The notes below the pieces were generated by a model. The model was not told the origin of the DNA. It was given only the letters and a program-made list of their open reading frames with translations, and searched no databases. From Rhodospirillales bacterium (GTDB lineage Bacteria > Pseudomonadota > Alphaproteobacteria > Bin95): a stretch of DNA of 19,501 nucleotides. Positions 5,143 to 12,987 of the stretch are shown here, one piece after another. The stretch covers positions 1-19,501 of the forward strand of contig JAYQLI010000029.1 in NCBI GenBank assembly GCA_038143065.1, given 5' to 3'. The translations under genes and the position numbers were made by a program. Each line of letters begins with the position of its first letter. The stretch's first letter is position 1.

Positions 5143-6093
5143 GAGACATGTGACAGCGGAACGCGACACAAAGCAAGGCGTTGTGTATTACAAGGGTGAG
5201 CCAATCCATCCAAAGGTCATTGATGAGGTAGATGAGACAAAGCCTGATGAGGTGAAGATGCGAGAACTGCTCGATCAAGCCTTAGAGGATCGGGATAACC
5301 TGGTTAATGTGCATGACTTCAAGGTCGTTCCCGTGCGTAGAAGTGAAAAGGGCGCACTGCCGCATTTCCGCGTAAATGATCCTAATTATCAGGATAAACT
5401 GTTTGCGTTGGGTGTCACCCTGCACGACAGGTTCCGCGATTTGATGTACGACAAACTGCAAAGCGAAGGCAACGATTGGTTTCGCTCGTCAGTTTCATTT
5501 GATGGCATGGATAAATTTCAGTATGGGTCGTGCGATAAAGAAACCATGCTGGAAGGTTACAGACCGGACATCACAGTTTCGCATAAGGACGCATCCGTGA
5601 AGGGAAAGATTGCGCTAGAGGTCATCAATACTAGCCCGCCGTCAGAGGGTAAGAAAGAAGCCTTAAGTGAAGCAAACCACATCATACTGCGCCTGAATAT
5701 TAAAGCTTATGCTGAGAGCTGCGCGTTAGATGGGTTTAACCCAACGGACAATGAAATAGAGCAATTCATATTAGCGAAAAGGTTTCGCCTACCCAGAACT
5801 GCAGATCGCAGTATGTTGCAGTCTGTGGTGCTTGTATGGACTGATCTGATCGCTGCGCAAGAAAAATACGCGCCTATATGCAGCGTCAGGATCGGCTTTG
5901 GTATGAAGATTATGCGCGTGAAAAACGACTTCAGATTTTGCGTGAAAAGGCGATTATGCACCAGTGTGGATCGTGTGAATTCAAATATCCATGCCCCTAT
6001 GCATACTCGCCTAAATGCGGCCCTGGATACACGTTTTTGAAAGCGTCTGACCGTGCGTCTGACAATGCGTCTGACCGTGATTTTCGGGGGTAA
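5132..6093 (+). CDS. PD-(D/E)XK-type nuclease (CoiA-like) with a Cys-rich C-terminus; probable frameshift near 5875
   Basis: ATG 5132 after GGGAG; YRPDITV...IALEVINTSPPSEGK motif; likely continues into ORF 5878..6093 (CGSC..CP..C). Confidence 0.55.
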
Positions 6094-6290
6094 AATTTGC
6101 AACCCCCTGAAGTGCGTCTGAAGTGCGTCTATGAGTCTGACTTTATAACGTAACTTTCTAGGTATATATAAGTATATGATATATAAGGGTTATTCAGGGT
6201 GGGTTGCAGGGATATTATTGTTAGACGCATTTATGGAGGGTATATATAATGATCCGTAAAGTATGTAAGGAAGTCAGACGCACAGACGCA
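6043..6290. repeat. Candidate replication origin: convergent TGCGTCTGA iterons around an AT-rich core
   Basis: Forward copies at 6043, 6054, 6066, 6113, 6124 and 6132 (degenerate); inverted copies at 6221, 6274 and 6282; AT-rich sequence at 6141-6260. Confidence 0.7.
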
Positions 6291-7375: not shown

Positions 7376-7542
7376 TAGAACCAAACAAAACACGTTGGGC
7401 AGTGCATGAGCAAGATGATGTGCTGCGCATCTGGTACAACGGTGAACTTGTTGGTGAAGTTGAGGGTAAGGAATTTGCTTATCTGATCTTAGAATTAGCA
7501 AAACATCTGCGAGAACGATTGGCAAAGAAGATCGATCCATGA
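7372..7542 (+). CDS. Hypothetical protein, 56 aa (MIEPNKTRWAVHEQDDVLRIWYNGELVGEVEGKEFAYLILELAKHLRERLAKKIDP)
   Basis: Read by hand; ATGA coupling with the previous stop. Confidence 0.65.
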   Translation: MIEPNKTRWAVHEQDDVLRIWYNGELVGEVEGKEFAYLILELAKHLRERLAKKIDP

Positions 7543-7548
7543 TACAAT
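7519..7548 (+). promoter_or_regulatory. sigma70-type promoter for the candidate sRNA
   Basis: TTGGCA (7519-7524), 18-bp spacer, TACAAT (7543-7548) with an extended -10 TG. Confidence 0.6.
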
Positions 7549-7553
7549 TCGCG

Positions 7554-7651
7554 TGAGGTAAACATCCATCTCCTCCCTGATATGGACTTATACTCCCACT
7601 TGTCTCGATTTACCTCAAACTGGCCCTGCGCTTTGCGTGGGGCATTTTTTT
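7554..7651 (+). ncRNA. Candidate ~97-nt small RNA with anti-Shine-Dalgarno motifs
   Basis: Outer stem TGAGGTAAA/TTTACCTCA; inner hairpin TCCAT/ATGGA presenting CTCCTCCC; second CTCCCA motif; intrinsic terminator at the 3' end. Confidence 0.6.
7623..7651 (+). terminator. Rho-independent terminator
   Basis: GCCCTGCGC-TTT-GCGTGGGGC stem (two G-U pairs) followed by ATTTTTTT. Confidence 0.8.
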
Positions 7652-7662
7652 GGTGTAAGCTT

Positions 7663-7708
7663 GGGGTGAGCTTTTCCACTACAGGGGGTGAGCTTTTCCA
7701 TCGGAGGG
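7663..7708 (+). repeat. Two copies of the TGAGCTTTTCCATCGGAGGGG repeat (first copy degenerate)
   Basis: 7667-7688 tgagcttttccactacaggggg; 7689-7708 tgagcttttccatcggaggg, which supplies the GGAGG RBS for ATG 7714. Confidence 0.9.
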
Positions 7709-7713
7709 TGCCT

Positions 7714-8412
7714 ATGCGCATGTCAATCAAGTCAAACGCGCCTGAGCTGCAAAAGGCCTGGACGCACTGGTCAATAAACAGATGCCATTTGCGATATCCT
7801 TGGCGACTAACATGAGCATTCAGCGATCCCGTGATGAACACCTTCGCTTGGAATACCGCAAGTTTTTTGAGATGCGCAACAAAGCTTGGTTCAATCAGGT
7901 GCATTCGATCCGAAACAGCACGGCGCAGCATGTTCGCAGAACAGGTGTTGCACTGGCCGCTATTCAAAGATCGAGCTTGCCATCTCCGCCAGGGACCAGA
8001 AAGAAATCGGTCCAACGCGCGGCATTCTCAGATTTTATGGAGCAGCACGTTAATGGTGGTATAAAAATGGCTGTTGGTGGTGCAAATAATGTTGCGATCC
8101 CCATCACTGGAAACGTAACGCGTCGTAAAGGTGGCGCAAAGGCGGGTGCTGTAAATAAAGCATTTAGACCGAAAACCGTTATGGGATCCGGTAAAGGTTC
8201 CGTAATTGAGAGCAAGGGCAAAGAAGCTTCTTGTGCGCAAAGTTGGGCGCGGTGGCAAGCGTACTCAGGTTTTGTATACCTTAAAACGCGCGGTACAGAT
8301 CAAAGGCGGGTACAATCCTGAACGCGCCGTTCGACGCGGCATGAACCAATTTTTCCAACCTATGATGAAACGTGCATTGATCCGCGCATTGAAAACCGCA
8401 AAGTTGCGCTGA
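7714..8412 (+). CDS. Basic tail-completion/neck protein, lambda gpZ (minor tail Z)-like; two apparent frameshifts
   Basis: MRMSIKSNAPELQK..LDALVNKQMPFAISLATN joins 7782..8321 and then 8206..8412; Lys/Arg-rich; QMPFA..A.N start and ...RALIRALKTAKLR end resemble gpZ-like proteins. Confidence 0.6.
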
Positions 8413-8496
8413 ACTTTTCCATCGGAGGGGTGAACTTTTCCATCGGAGGGGGTCTGAGCTTTTCCATCGGAGGGGTGAGCTTTTCCATCGGAGGGG
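8410..8496 (+). repeat. Tandem array of four 21-bp units TGA(A/G)CTTTTCCATCGGAGGGG
   Basis: Units at 8410, 8431, 8455 and 8476; the TGA of the first unit is the stop codon of the upstream gene. Confidence 0.95.
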
Positions 8497-8524
8497 TATT
8501 GCGTGCAAATTGACGCGGATCGCG

Positions 8525-8598
8525 TGCAAAATTGCGCAAAAAACGCGTTAAAATAAACGTCAAAAAAGCTTTGCATTGATATCAAATAGCTATATATT
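8525..8598 (+). promoter_or_regulatory. sigma70-like promoter with upstream phased A-tracts
   Basis: A-tracts at 8528, 8538, 8550 and 8562; TTGCAT (8571-8576), 16-bp spacer, TATATT (8593-8598). Confidence 0.55.
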
Positions 8599-8630
8599 TA
8601 AGGGGCAAACGCTAATCGAAAGGTAAAAAA

Positions 8631-8726
8631 ATGATTCGCAATATGTTGGAATTTTTCGCGGTAATTTTGTTTACAATCGCGATATTTTACGCGCCAAAAC
8701 TTATTCAGATTTTGGGGTCGCTATAA
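8631..8726 (+). CDS. 31-aa hydrophobic (single-TM) peptide MIRNMLEFFAVILFTIAIFYAPKLIQILGSL
   Basis: GAAAGGTA leader upstream; TAATG coupling to the next gene. Confidence 0.6.
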   Translation: MIRNMLEFFAVILFTIAIFYAPKLIQILGSL

Positions 8727-8929
8727 TGAATTATGAAACAATGGCCGCAATTGATGCATATAAAGAAGAGTTTTATTATTTTGCATATGAGGGTGAACAA
8801 GGTTCATTCATTGATTTGGCGCGTGAATTATTCATTGAAGACAATGGCGAAAAAGAAGCGCAAAAAATAGCATGGCAATATGTTTGCGGATATTTTGCCG
8901 CAATAAAACGTGAACTAAACGAAAGGTAA
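8726..8929 (+). CDS. Hypothetical acidic protein, 67 aa
   Basis: Translationally coupled ORF within the operon. Confidence 0.7.
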   Translation: MNYETMAAIDAYKEEFYYFAYEGEQGSFIDLARELFIEDNGEKEAQKIAWQYVCGYFAAIKRELNER

Positions 8930-8933
8930 GACA

Positions 8934-9287
8934 ATGAATAGAGTAGCAATAGAATTCCATGATTTTGACAATATGGATTTATTCCAGGCAATTTATGGGG
9001 TCGCGTCAATCAATGGATTTGATGATGTTTCTTGGCATAATGACGCGATGCCATGCATGGAAAGAGTATTTCAATTTGAGACAAAACCGAATGTAACGGT
9101 AAAAATTTGGATTGATTGGAAAAATCCTAATTATTCCGATTTTGCCGAATTACGAGAGTCGGGACAATGGAAACAAATTGCCATTGATGAACTAAACGAA
9201 AGAGACGATTCAATGTATTGTTTCCATTTTGACAGCGCAATTGATGCAATTCTGCATTTGCGCAATGTGATCAATAAATACGAATAA
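8934..9287 (+). CDS. Hypothetical acidic protein, 117 aa (DDVSWHNDAMPC motif)
   Basis: GAAAGGTAAGACAATG leader; Asp/Glu/Trp-rich. Confidence 0.75.
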   Translation: MNRVAIEFHDFDNMDLFQAIYGVASINGFDDVSWHNDAMPCMERVFQFETKPNVTVKIWIDWKNPNYSDFAELRESGQWKQIAIDELNERDDSMYCFHFDSAIDAILHLRNVINKYE

Positions 9288-9317
9288 ATCTAAACGCTAA
9301 ACGAAAGGTACAAGACA

Positions 9318-10070
9318 ATGGAAAATAAAGCTTACAATTTCGCGGGTAAATTAATTCGCGCGGGCGGTGATGCAAAGACAATCAAGGGACAAGACAAGGG
9401 ATATTTCACCGCTATCATGTATATGACACCCCATATAACAATGGGGCAAAATCTATGCCCTATGGCCGAAACCGCGGGATGTTTAAAGGGATGTTTAAAC
9501 ACTGCTGGACGTGGTCAAATGAATAGCGTTCAAGAAGCGCGACAAAGAAAAGCTGAATTCTTTGTCGCGGATCGCGATGCATTTATGGCAATGCTATATG
9601 ATGATATCCGTCGTTTTATTAACTATTGCCTAAAGAAAGATTTGAAACCGTGCATCCGTTTGAACGGGACAACGGATATCCGATGGGAAAACATTTGCTA
9701 TAAGAAGCACACAATTTTTGAATTGTTTCCCGACGTGCAATTCTATGATTACACAAAAATAGCTAATCGCAGAAACATCCCGAATAACTATCATTTAACG
9801 TTTAGTTATTCGGCCGCAAATCCAATCTATGCGCGCCAAGTAAAAATTGCGTTGGACAATGGAATGAATATGGCCGTCGTGTTTCGTGACAAAGACACAA
9901 TACCAGGCGAATTCATGGGGCGGCCAACGGTTGATGGTGATAAGAATGATTTGCGGTTTCTTGATCCGCAACATTGCATTGTTGCATTGTATGCCAAGGG
10001 GCAAGCGAAACGTGATCAATCCGGTTTTGTTGTTGATGCAATGCCATTGTATGCAATTGCTGCTGAATAA
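9318..10070 (+). CDS. Phage Gp88-like protein (putative Fe-S, radical-SAM-like fold)
   Basis: NLCPMAETAGCLKGCLNTAGRG Cys cluster, IRLNGTTDIRWE, VQFYDYTK, YHLTFSYS, VDGDKNDLRFLD and VALYAKG motifs. Confidence 0.75.
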   Translation: MENKAYNFAGKLIRAGGDAKTIKGQDKGYFTAIMYMTPHITMGQNLCPMAETAGCLKGCLNTAGRGQMNSVQEARQRKAEFFVADRDAFMAMLYDDIRRFINYCLKKDLKPCIRLNGTTDIRWENICYKKHTIFELFPDVQFYDYTKIANRRNIPNNYHLTFSYSAANPIYARQVKIALDNGMNMAVVFRDKDTIPGEFMGRPTVDGDKNDLRFLDPQHCIVALYAKGQAKRDQSGFVVDAMPLYAIAAE

Positions 10071-10087
10071 ATGAAAGGTAAAAGACA

Positions 10088-10352
10088 ATGACAGATAAAG
10101 CTTTAGAAATAGAGACAAAACAAATTGATCGCAGCATATGATGCCACAATTCAAGTTGATTGGCTTATTGGGATTGGTGGCTATATGGAAAAAAAAAGAT
10201 TGGGTTTTATTGGTTTTTATCATGCATATGACGAAAGCATAAATGTTTTTCGTTCACGAGTTTTAAAAGCATATGACGCAATCAATAAAGCTTATGAAAT
10301 TGGCCCGATGGTGAAATACAATCATCAATCACATTTGCAGAAACCGACGTGA
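10088..10352 (+). CDS. Hypothetical protein (start 10088, probable frameshift near 10120)
   Basis: GAAAGGTAAAAGACAATG leader, then MTDKALEIETK..., joining ORF 10125..10352. Confidence 0.55.
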
Positions 10353-10359
10353 ATATGTA

Positions 10360-10443
10360 ATGAGTGAAAAGATATTTAACGCGATTGTTTTAGCAATCAT
10401 GGCAATACTAGGTTTAATACATGAATTGATTGGGACGTTATAA
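10360..10443 (+). CDS. 27-aa hydrophobic peptide MSEKIFNAIVLAIMAILGLIHELIGTL
   Basis: Read by hand; TM-like segment; stop codon lies inside the terminator hairpin. Confidence 0.5.
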   Translation: MSEKIFNAIVLAIMAILGLIHELIGTL

Positions 10444-10458
10444 CGTCCCTTTCTTTTT
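10432..10458 (+). terminator. Rho-independent terminator closing the AT-rich operon
   Basis: Perfect palindrome GGGACGTTATAACGTCCC followed by TTTCTTTTT. Confidence 0.8.
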
Positions 10459-10553
10459 GTCTTTCGCGCGGTTTATCCGCGTTTTTTTGTGCCTTTCTGT
10501 CATTGTATACCAAACCTGGCAATTGTTCTCGATTGTACTGAATTAATACAATG

Positions 10554-10612
10554 GCATACAATTGCGGGTCCTTTGCATACAATTGCCCTGCGGGTACGCG
10601 CGAGGCGCGATT
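10554..10612 (+). other. cos packaging site (cosQ/cosN-like)
   Basis: CGGGTCCTTT containing the lambda cosQ heptamer GGGTCCT (10566-10572); GC-rich GCGGGTACGCGCGAGGCGCG downstream; located directly upstream of the small terminase. Confidence 0.7.
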
Positions 10613-10659
10613 CATTTCTAGTGGTAGGGGTTATATAAGGGGTGACGCTAGATGTAGTC

Positions 10660-10689
10660 TTGTCAGGCCACACATGCTATTGTTATGAT
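10660..10689 (+). promoter_or_regulatory. Candidate promoter for packaging/structural genes
   Basis: TTGTCA, 18-bp spacer, TATGAT with an extended -10 TG. Confidence 0.45.
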
Positions 10690-10714
10690 ATCTTCGCACT
10701 AGAAGGGGCGAAAA

Positions 10715-11179
10715 ATGGCATCTCAGAGCGAAATATCGTCAAAACTTGGAATAAATGTCGCAACATTTAAGGATTTTGTGGCGCGTGGCATCATCGAAGA
10801 GCGAGATCGAGGTCAGTATACCTTAGAAGAATGCGCAAAGCAGTATCTAAATCACCTTCGCGAGATTGCAGCCGGACGTATGACTACTGATGGTCTTAAT
10901 CTTGCCGACGAAAGAGCGAGGTTGGCTAAGGAGCAGGCTGATGCCAAAGAGATGGAAAACATGGTAGAGCGCGGTGAGCTGCTCTATATGGATGATGTTA
11001 TCAAAGACTTTGAGGATCAGTTGATGAACTGTAAGACAAAGCTTTTGGCGACACCAACGAAGATCGCTGCTGAAGTATTCGCATCCCGTGATGTGCAAGA
11101 AGTTCAGGAACTTATGGAAGAAGCAATTAAGGACGCATTAAGTGAATTGGTCGGATACCGTCAGAAAGACGCAGCGTAA
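10715..11179 (+). CDS. terS: Terminase small subunit (lambda Nu1-like)
   Basis: N-terminal winged HTH, coiled-coil ERARLAKEQADAKEMEN..RGEL; position upstream of GpA. Confidence 0.85.
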   Translation: MASQSEISSKLGINVATFKDFVARGIIEERDRGQYTLEECAKQYLNHLREIAAGRMTTDGLNLADERARLAKEQADAKEMENMVERGELLYMDDVIKDFEDQLMNCKTKLLATPTKIAAEVFASRDVQEVQELMEEAIKDALSELVGYRQKDAA

Positions 11180-12987
11180 GAAATTTCAGCAGCGTTTACA
11201 GCAGGCGATGCGTCGTGCGCTGAAGCCACCACCTAAATTGAGCGTGTCGGAATGGGCTGACCAGTATCGCCAATTGTCGTCGGAAAGTTCTGCTGAAGCG
11301 GGTAAATGGTCCACGCGTCGTGCTGAATATCAACGTGGCATGATGGATGCTGTCAGCGACCCGAAGATAGAGACTGTTGTCTTGATGACTGCCGCGCAGA
11401 TCGGGAAGACTGAGTTGATCAATAATGTGGTTGGTTTTCATTCATCAGGACCCTGCTCCGATGTTGATTGTGCAGCCAACCTTAGAGATGGCACAAACTT
11501 GGTCAAAGGACCGCTTGGCTCCGGCGATCAGAGATACCCCTGTTTTGCATCAGAAGGTTGGCGATCCTCGATCCCGTGATGGCGGCAACACGACTTTGCA
11601 TAAAGTATTCCCTGGTGGACATGTTACAGCGGCGGGTTCGAACAGTCCTGTCTCACTGGCATCTCGACCATGTCGCCTAATCCTGTGCGATGAGGTTGAT
11701 AGGTATCCTCTTTCGGCGGGGTCGGAGGGTGATCCAGTTTCACTTGCGCGTAAACGTGCGACGACGTTCTGGAATAGAAAGATTGTTTTGGTGAGTACGC
11801 CAACTGAGAAAGGTGCATCTCGGATTGAGCAAGCTTACGACGAAAGTGATCAACGTAAGTTCCACGTTGAATGCCATGATTGCAAAGAGTGGCAGGTTTT
11901 ACAGTGGTCTAACGTAAAATGGTCGAATAGCGATCCACGCACTGCTGAATACACATGTGAGCATTGTGGATCGTGTTGGAGTGATGCGGATCGATATAAG
12001 GCGATAAGGTACGGTGAATGGCGAAAAACGGCAGATGGCGATGGAAAGACAGCAGGTTTTCACCTTTCCGCGCTTTATTCTCCTTGGACATCATTAGAAG
12101 AAATCGTGAGAGACTTCATCGCATCAAAGCGCGATCCCATGCGACTAAAGACGTGGGTAAACACGACACTCGGCGAAACATGGGAAGATCAAGGCGAGAC
12201 ACTTGATGAATACGATCTTATGTCGCGGCGTGAAGATCATGGCGATGAACTGCCTGAAGATGTGCTTGTTTTGACTGCTGGAGTGGATATTCAGGATGAT
12301 CGTGCGGCTGTTGAGATCGTAGGTTGGGCCGAGGAGAGCGCAGCTATAGTCTGTTTTACGATGAATTCTATGGTGACCCATCTACTAAGGATTTCTGGAA
12401 CGTACTCGATACGACGTTATTACAATCGTTCAAACATCCGTTATCTGGCGATATGGTGATTAGATCGACCTGTGTGGACAGTGGCGGTCACTACACGCAA
12501 CAGGTTTATAATTACTGTAAGACCAGGGCGGGACGCAGGATATTCGCGATTAAGGGTGTTGGTGGTGAAGGTAAACCAATCATTGGACGGCCAACCAAGA
12601 ATAACATTGGTAAGATTAATCTATTCCCTGTCGGTACAGATACAGCAAAAGAGCTTATATTTGCTCGATTACGGATCAAAGACTTTGGACCGGGATTTTG
12701 CCACTTTTCGTCGCAGAATTCTGACGAATATTTCCGCATGCTGACCTCAGAAAAGAAGGTAACGCGTTATTTTAAAGGCCGTCCAAAGCGTGAGTGGATT
12801 AAGATCTGGCAGCGAAATGAGGCTTTAGACTGTCGCGTATACGCAACCGCAAAGATTTAGCCTTCTGAACATAAATCTAGATGTTGTTGCAAAACATGCA
12901 CAAAATAGGGTACAATCGGACCAAATGCAGCCAAAACGTCGCCCTGCTTTGCCTCGGCGTAATTCGTTCGTTCATGGGTATAAATAA
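11142..12987 (+). CDS. terL: Terminase large subunit (lambda GpA family), three apparent frameshifts
   Basis: PPPKLSVSEWAD, AQIGKTE Walker A, CDEVDRY Walker B, VSTPT, Zn-binding Cys pairs, TAGVDIQDDR, VDSGG, IFAIKG and RNEALDCRVYA motifs; spans ORFs 11142..11579, 11425..12459, 12324..12860 and a tail ending at TAA 12987. Confidence 0.95.

Follow-up and report, generated by a model that had tools for sequence, protein, structure and literature searches.

A repeat-headed, variable gene cassette beside the predicted cohesive end of a phage contig related to Roseobacter phage CRP-822

What is the role of a short, AT-rich run of small genes that is bounded on one side by an array of 21-bp tandem repeats and on the other by the apparent end of a phage genome? 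The question is raised by a stretch of 19,501 bp (the window), which is the entire contig JAYQLI010000029.1 (C29), one of 52 contigs in the Rhodospirillales assembly GCA_038143065.1. The original prediction described a repeat array, an AT-rich segment, a promoter-like site with A-runs, six small genes, a terminator and a cos-like end site, all of which are present, and proposed that a lambdoid phage injects these genes first, as an anti-defence cassette, with a pause of DNA transfer at the repeats. The anatomy of the cassette and of the adjoining cohesive-end site (cos) is here regarded as close to certain. The segment is interpreted, with an even chance of being right, as a hypervariable, moron-like cassette that is shuffled by recombination at the cos-proximal, last-packaged end of a CRP-822-type siphophage. 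The most economical role for the array is that of a protein-binding transcriptional element (operator or insulator), a suggestion that is offered tentatively and that rests on sequence comparison.

The affiliation of the phage is indicated by its terminase genes, as the terS and terL DNA (small and large subunits) of C29 is approximately 70% identical to that of seven Roseobacter phages (CRP-406, 701, 811, 821, 822, 823 and 831). According to the accessible part of PMC12629253, these seven phages define the CRP-822-type family of siphoviruses, which is reported to be lytic and to lack an integrase in almost all members. Because its terminase genes match a family that is nearly devoid of integrases, C29 is not read as a lambdoid prophage, and the lambdoid lifestyle assumed earlier is not sustained; the contig is probably a co-assembled lytic phage. 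Host sequence flanks it on neither side, and roughly a third of the phage, comprising the tail and lysis genes, was not found in the assembly. The contig may simply have been binned with this bacterial genome, and the assembly may not be the host, since its family is represented here by only 37 species genomes. Single-base frame breaks occur in terL, in the gene that precedes the array (gene X) and in one cassette gene (10089–10352), each of which is split over two to three frames, and one extra A is present at position 12331 in all three metagenome runs that cover it. These breaks point to an error-prone assembly or a decaying copy.

The genome end had been anticipated near 10596, and it maps within 3 nt of that position as a 13-nt cohesive end (GGTACGCGCGAGG, 10593–10605). 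The evidence was obtained in silico from contig ends, including four metagenome runs that were all compared as contigs. In run X2, which contains a relative approximately 94% identical to the window, one contig ends exactly at 10605 and another, coming from the other side, at 10593. Two unrelated whole IMG/VR contigs (L217 and L222) begin at the base homologous to 10593. The 13-nt overlap is indicative of filled-in 5' cohesive ends rather than the overlap of ~30 nt left by a graph branch. The block surrounding the end (CTGCGGGTACGCGCGAGGC) is identical in CRP-811 and conserved in CRP-701, CRP-406, CRP-831 and contig L022, and it lies ~110 nt 5' of terS. As the X2 contig ends, the L217 and L222 starts and the conserved block agree, cos is taken as established as far as sequence data allow. 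A terL of the gpA family, 70–80% identical to the TerL of CRP-701, lies adjacent to terS, and together with the short overlap predicted in silico this corresponds to cos-type packaging of the lambda gpA kind. Should packaging proceed as in lambda, starting at cos and moving into terS, the cassette would be packaged last and ejected first.

The opposite border of the cassette is formed by the array. Four units of the form TGA(A/G)CTTTTCCATCGGAGGGG occupy 8410–8497 on the forward strand, for which Tandem Repeats Finder returns a period of 21, 4.0 copies, 90% matches and a score of 135. The 17-nt core CTTTTCCATCGGAGGGG occurs exactly at 8414, 8435, 8459 and 8480 (span 8414–8496), with start-to-start spacings of 21, 24 and 21, and a fifth copy with one mismatch is found at 7693. 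At up to three mismatches the window contains six core matches, compared with 0.02 expected from 200 shuffles, and across the whole 4.63-Mb assembly the motif is found on C29 only. The first unit includes the TGA stop codon of gene X, and the array starts at this point in every array-bearing CRP-822-type locus.

Comparison with relatives links the array to the cassette. Sixteen loci with X and downstream sequence bear the array, and wherever both the array and terS are in view in CRP-822-type loci (7/7), a variable segment of 1.5–2.5 kb separates X from terS. The anticipated co-occurrence of array, cassette of changing gene content and cos with terS thus holds in all seven loci. X-to-terS loci that lack the array contain no insert (CRP-701, CRP-406 and CRP-822), an HNH endonuclease gene only (CRP-831 and CRP-823) or a ParB-methylase gene (L231). 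The whole cassette block is therefore either present or absent between X and cos in otherwise similar genomes. Only one isolate in six, CRP-811, carries the array, which is missing from CRP-701, 406, 822, 823 and 831; this count covers six of the seven CRP-822-type isolates and leaves out CRP-821. In CRP-811, an isolate reported as not purified, two units, X, two further units, a promoter-like site, a phrog_2554 gene, genes for small membrane proteins, a terminator and cos follow one another. A search for related loci with the CRP-811 X protein as query gave no match. The X proteins are only 32–41% identical between lineages that share identical array units.

Variation within the cassette proceeds gene by gene. 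In the window, four of the six cassette open reading frames (ORFs) are preceded by a repeated ribosome-binding linker, AACGAAAGGTAAnACA-ATG, and most genes across the cassettes follow a linker of the type AAaCAAGGAAAcAaaC-ATG. Relatives 93–95% identical to the window lack exactly one gene, with breakpoints at the linkers: 8724–8933 is skipped in runs X5 and X7, which removes a 67-aa gene, and 10042–10359 is skipped in runs X2 and X5, which removes the gene at 10089–10352. All-against-all BLAST of the cassette ORFs revealed a pool of shared families. A GP88-family protein is shared by the cassettes of the window, L218, L074 and L237, a 315-aa phrog_2554 protein is common to L022, L230, L232, CRP-811 and L039, and proteins of 61 and 73 aa are likewise shared between cassettes. 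No gene common to all cassettes was found.

The six genes of the window cassette all lie on the forward strand. The first encodes a 31-aa hydrophobic protein (8631–8726), and small proteins starting with MIR..L are present in other cassettes too. It is followed by the gene for the 67-aa protein (8726–8929), which has homologues with 56–60% identity in the cassettes of L236 and L237, and by a gene for a 117-aa protein of no family (8934–9287). The fourth gene encodes a 250-aa GP88-family protein (9318–10070; PF17338, phrog_1617; E 5.9e-48). The fifth, at 10089–10352, has the conserved linker before its ATG and a frame change near 10125, and the last encodes a 27-aa hydrophobic protein (10360–10443) that resembles the short hydrophobic last genes of L236, L237, CRP-811 and L022. 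Upstream of the first gene, A-runs spaced ~11 bp apart (8528–8567) precede a sigma-70-like consensus match, TTTGCA-17-TATATT (8570–8598), and the operon is followed by two terminator-like hairpins with T-runs (10432–10449 and 10466–10482, within 10432–10492). The guanine-cytosine (GC) content is 0.345–0.41 in windows across 8401–10600 versus 0.44–0.53 in the flanks, with 0.38 for the cassette versus 0.47 and 0.48, and the base composition is unlike that of the flanks. The description of the segment as a self-contained unit adjoining cos is borne out in these respects, the promoter and terminators being assigned at the level of consensus.

The functional part of the original prediction fared differently, as no evidence was obtained for anti-defence activity. 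GP88 is the sole cassette product with an assigned family; none was assigned to the other five, and NCBIfam gave no match for seven proteins. The GP88 assignment itself is secure (164 bits versus a gathering cut-off of 24.4, residues 18–240), and PF17338 is a very large family of unnamed proteins with no assigned function, with 7,993 of 8,000 scored candidates at E ≤ 1e-5. The AlphaFold model of GP88 has a pLDDT of 85 and a pTM of 0.84. Its best match among solved structures, to barrel-type hydrolases, is insignificant (E 5.8e-3, TM 0.24), and a sequence search found no solved relative. The protein Atlas search returned viral hypothetical clusters and DUF7227 only, and a literature search on GP88 and PF17338 returned unrelated progranulin papers only. 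An anti-defence role of the cassette genes is consequently neither supported nor excluded.

The array and part of the gene pool, namely GP88, a phrog_2554 protein and small membrane proteins, recur in a second phage family. Roseobacter phage CRP-6 carries five units, followed by a second repeat set of about ten copies of GTGACATTTTTGCAAC and then by a membrane-protein gene, a homologue of GP88 (32% identity, E 2e-37), two small genes and 685 bp of non-coding DNA, after which the likely terS and terL are found. Since contig L067 runs across the start of the CRP-6 record, that start is arbitrary, and the array sits between divergent operons and not at a mapped end. On the opposite strand, a consensus-level match to a leftward promoter (TTGACC-17-TAGAGT) spans array unit 1, which suggests a link between the array and early-promoter control. 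In both families the arrays lie upstream of promoter-like sites of the cassette. Second repeat sets following CRP-6-type arrays are lineage-specific, and include GTTCCTGATTCGTTC, GTGACATTTTTGCAAC, TACGAAAGGNTAGGT, TATGCGATGG and others (for example in L251, L264, L244 and L300).

A looser tandem pattern retrieved at least 120 IMG/VR contigs, from which 77 loci were analyzed. CRP-6-type early genes lie upstream on the opposite strand in 48 of these loci, X lies upstream in 4, and 9 have no marker. In 34 of the 77, of which 33 are CRP-6-type, terS was found 2.2 to 5.1 kb downstream, encoded on the same strand as the array, and it was found nowhere else; in the 33 CRP-6-type loci the array heads a cassette 2.4–5.1 kb upstream of terS. 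Where at least 5.5 kb of downstream sequence is available, terS is seen in 12 of 14 loci, the exceptions being L241, whose context differs, and the markerless L242. Fifteen of the 77 loci contain GP88 and 12 a phrog_2554-like gene, never together, and both are missing from 14 of the 34 loci in which terS is visible. GP88 and the phrog_2554-like Cys-rich protein may be alternative cargo of equivalent role; a profile comparison with hhalign detected no similarity between them (probability 0.14).

A distal-tail and tape-measure module (CRP-811, L340, 17.2–23.3 kb; CRP-6, L089, 18.6–24.6 kb) with 40–66% amino acid identity is also common to the two families, which are mosaically related. Array-less CRP-701 shares the module with CRP-6 as well, more weakly, so the module does not track the array. 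Blastn with a CRP-6-type array against 50,697 phage records gave no match, and the first blastn recovered the array in CRP-6 only, missing the two-unit arrays of CRP-811. A 15-mer scan of genome contigs gave single, chance-level matches only, among the 119 matches listed. In the 37 genomes of the assembly's family no chromosomal arrays were detected; one chance-like chromosomal match and one other small phage-like contig (G029) are present among them.

The unit is best described by the motif WTTTCC-N3-G-N2-GGGG, which is present in 2–13 copies per array, always on the terS strand and always heading the cassette. Across 94 distinct arrays with 388 units, where the collecting pattern itself fixes several positions, the free positions are A at 84% (position 7), C or T (positions 8 and 9), G at 69% (position 11) and A, G, T or C at 45, 27, 24 and 4% (position 12). 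The 3-nt linker within the unit varies (ATC, ACT, ACC or CAC). The cores remain constant while the inter-unit spacers and the neighboring proteins diverge, and the unit is far better conserved than the proteins around it. A core that is fixed amid diverging spacers and proteins points to a recognition site.

These observations can be combined into the following proposal. The cassette lies between X, the last gene of the early/replication arm, and cos; its genes are drawn from a pool common to many related phages and CRP-6-type phages, and single genes are gained or lost at the conserved ribosome-binding linkers. The array would comprise independent recognition sites for one sequence-specific DNA-binding factor, which would not be encoded by the cassette and would have no visible regulon in the accompanying bacterial assembly. 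Such an array would most likely control or insulate transcription where the early arm meets the cassette and the late arm. It could also serve as a patch of homology for cassette exchange, given its conservation in two phage families.

Several observations weigh against this proposal. The cassette GC content is below that of the flanks in only four of six array-bearing loci and is higher in L022 and CRP-811. The promoter and terminator calls are consensus matches at shuffle frequency; the scan found 8 promoter-like sites, compared with a mean of 8.7 in shuffles, and the cassette promoter is for that reason assigned at consensus level only. The spacing of units across the 94 arrays is broad (17–27 bp, mode 21), so that cooperative, phased binding would not be required. 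No binding factor was identified among the shared cassette genes or by comparison of CRP-811 with CRP-6, where tblastx revealed, besides the tail module, only weak segments below 50 bits outside the cassette. Outside C29 the assembly shows no enrichment of the motif (5 loose matches versus 14 for the reversed control; at three mismatches, 5 versus 7). Finally, the polarity of packaging is carried over from lambda. The lack of motif enrichment, like the lack of a Chi signal described below, is weak evidence because the host may be another organism.

Other functions for the array have to be weighed against that of a transcriptional element. The injection stop of the original prediction, in which the cassette is the first DNA to enter, the array halts transfer and anti-defence proteins of the cassette lift the halt, is now considered very unlikely. 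The cassette does lie at the cos-proximal right end and the array is conserved beside variable genes, much as the injection-stop region of T5 is described in the accessible part of an in-silico hypothesis (10.1101/866236), with conserved repeats and DnaA boxes beside a poorly conserved coding stretch of ~3 kb. The array is, however, absent in five of six isolates, and thus is not a stop signal conserved in all relatives. The cassettes have no common gene with which a pause could be ended (no search by name was made for A1/A2 homologues), the fold of GP88 is uninformative, and long terminal repeats are lacking. A small array also precedes X, and the CRP-6-type array resides in a divergent intergenic region 2.4–5.1 kb from terS, where in CRP-6 the promoter match overlaps its first unit. 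A broader version, in which the array acts as a checkpoint on incoming or free-ended phage DNA and the cassette is a "leading region" that enters first, is scarcely more credible. Here the units would be bound by a host protein, such as membrane-associated DnaA, or read by an end-resecting nuclease, and transfer or degradation would be halted at the border of the essential genome. The unit begins with TTTTCCAYY, and these first 9 nt may resemble a relaxed DnaA box, a likeness that would also speak for the injection stop. An accessory replication origin, in which the units function as iterons or DnaA boxes next to AT-rich DNA and the phage-specific second repeats as initiator sites, is an improbable option. 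The 17-bp units of the window recur at about two helical turns and are followed by A-rich DNA, CRP-6-type arrays are followed by differing phage-specific repeat sets, and X is flanked by arrays in the manner of the rep genes of P1 and F, which are flanked by repeat arrays. Yet close relatives replicate without the array, X is found without the array and the CRP-6 array without X, no linked initiator co-varies, spacing is unphased in the wider set, and presence of the array follows the cassette and not the replication genes.

The spacing and orientation of the units bear on a further explanation. Acting like tandem Chi sites, the units could halt AddAB or RecBCD that has entered from the free cos end on the right, an idea to which little weight is given; in the same scheme, and with the same reservation, the stretch from cos to the array would be resected and repaired by recombination, and would hence be hypervariable. 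All units are oriented such that an enzyme arriving from cos meets their 3' side, a function independent of spacing fits the broad spacing, and the hypervariable stretch coincides with the interval from the end to the array. CTGGTGG or CTGGAGG is present in many units and closely resembles Chi of E. coli and H. influenzae. In contrast, the 7- and 8-mers of the unit show neither over-representation nor unusual skew on the 2.86-Mb contig of the assembly, whose status as host is uncertain (CTGGTGG 338:211, observed/expected 0.97; ATCGGAGG 22:37), the conserved unit extends over 16 nt and includes a TTTCC block superfluous for Chi, and the left end carries no unit in the opposite orientation. The units might instead be kept alike by exchange among co-infecting phages, as a recombination linker with no trans-acting factor. 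The same array and gene pool are indeed found in both families, which have a tail module in common as well, and the phage possesses exonuclease VIII-like, gp2.5-like and RusA genes; the divergence of spacers around fixed cores nevertheless indicates selection on the core rather than copying of whole blocks, and this explanation is considered unlikely. The lowest probability is assigned to an RNA element, in which each unit folds as CUUUUCC-loop-GGAGGGG and hides a Shine-Dalgarno-like sequence, and which would act in the 3' untranslated region or leader of X. With G-U pairing, the conserved blocks TTTTCC and GGAGGGG are complementary as RNA, the linker between them varies, the array RNA has a folding energy of -43.3 kcal/mol (z -2.9), which none of 200 shuffles reaches, and the last unit of the small upstream array provides the ribosome-binding site of X. 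However, the A of GGAGGGG (position 12) varies freely with no compensating change in the 388 units, and the arrays are upstream of promoter-like sites; both argue against an RNA hairpin. Rfam returned two weak matches on 7400–10900, far below the gathering score.

The transcriptional reading, and the moron-like cassette to which it belongs, can be placed among known systems. Morons are said, in work linked to Juhala et al. 2000 and Hendrix, to carry their own promoter and terminator. As with morons and the variable right-end genes of lambdoid and HK97-like phages, an extra transcription unit of differing composition is present or absent between the early right arm and cos. Unlike morons, the cassette belongs to a family reported as lytic, contains several genes that are shuffled one by one at conserved linkers, and is headed by a repeat array common to a second family. 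The hyperplastic regions of T4-like phages have conserved promoter/stem-loop junctions and likewise present short conserved intergenic sequences before many small genes, with gene-wise gain and loss; in the present case a ribosome-binding linker forms the junction, and the array and cos enclose the region. Iteron clusters, known at P1 oriR/incA and F ori2, are similar as tandem direct repeats of 17–22 bp in one orientation beside A-rich DNA, and differ in that here no initiator gene is linked, the repeats are dispensable in relatives and their spacing is unphased in the wider set. Conjugative plasmids have anti-defence "leading regions", and the likeness lies in variable small genes on DNA that would enter first; among the present cassettes no known anti-defence gene came to light, and first entry is a deduction. 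The T5 first-step region, as presented in the accessible part of 10.1101/866236, is comparable in its terminal position, in its conserved non-coding repeats beside poorly conserved small genes and in its box-like motifs. In contrast to T5, long terminal repeats and a conserved A1/A2-like pair are lacking here, and the array is absent from most isolates.

Both families possess a slot just upstream of the terminase genes in which small genes are swapped, and a single 16-nt motif, conserved better than any neighboring protein, marks the slot. CRP-822-type and CRP-6-type phages are reported to be widespread in the ocean in the accessible parts of PMC12629253 and PMC6918029. The word "repeat" occurs 0 times in the main text of either paper, the motif is not mentioned in the parts searched, and a literature search on roseophages and repeats found nothing relevant. 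Whatever reads the motif would, once identified, be a regulator or host enzyme shared by many marine phage infections, and the motif offers a handle for finding accessory and possibly counter-defence genes in viromes. The arrangement can be tested at the bench because isolate CRP-811 carries all of it. Were the checkpoint version true, a T5-like two-step logic would operate in small cos siphophages of two abundant marine families.

The remaining features of the window are described from left to right. The gene order of C29 starts with a helix-turn-helix protein gene on the minus strand, followed by genes for RusA, an exonuclease VIII-like nuclease, a gp2.5-like single-stranded DNA-binding protein, a primase/helicase and a PAPS-reductase-like protein, and then by small ORFs, the cassette segment, terS, the gpA-type terL and a protease-capsid fusion. 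Short tandem repeats (GCGTCTGACCGT x3 and CTGAAGTGCGT x2) occupy 6043–6130, in the gap between a 322-aa ORF and the PAPS-reductase-like gene. The small upstream array (7650–7709, forward strand) comes after a terminator-like sequence (7623–7643) and consists of a degenerate unit (7666–7687) and a near-perfect unit (7688–7709), whose GGAGGG lies 6 nt 5' of the ATG of X at 7715. One or two units are also present just 5' of the X start codon in CRP-811, L068, L074 and L218. Gene X (7715–8412, forward strand) is a phrog_1924 homologue (E 5e-37 and 9e-45 for the X proteins of relatives) that is read in three frames in the window (7715–7815, 7782–8321 and 8206–8412). Its designation as a minor tail protein is the annotation of phrog_1924 only, and its predicted structure is unusable (pLDDT 41). 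Downstream of the main array, two further 21-bp phased repeats of a second type, with GCGTGCAAA(A)T, are found on the forward strand at 8491–8532.

Repeats are present on both sides of the genome end. To its left, 10500–10590 contains ATACAATKGC in three direct and several inverted copies, and CRP-811 and L022 have repeats of the CGCCCCG type at the matching position. These repeats are candidate terminase recognition sites that would differ by lineage. To the right, the terS leader (10606–10714, forward strand) contains a conserved TTTCTAG block and a promoter-like TTGTCA-18-TATGAT (10660–10689). It is followed on the same strand by terS (10715–11179; phrog_57, E 5e-25) and terL (11142–12860; PF05876, E 5.2e-13), the latter split over three frames.

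Two observations concern sequences beyond these phages. A third context of the motif (L241, L266, L271, L279, L289 and L296) has two units, TCATTTTCCCACGAKGGGGGG, in a layout unlike that of either family, with ThyX (4/6 loci) and a DNA polymerase (L241) encoded on the opposite strand 4–10 kb downstream. In the accompanying bacterial assembly, a scan for DnaA-box clusters near the GC-skew minimum of contig C35 revealed no clear oriC; GC skew is lowest near 1.99 Mb and highest near 0.58 Mb. The most polarized G-rich octamers of C35 are GGGGAGGG (37:4), GGGAAGGG (43:7) and AGGGTAGG (30:2), which look like FtsK-orienting sequences.

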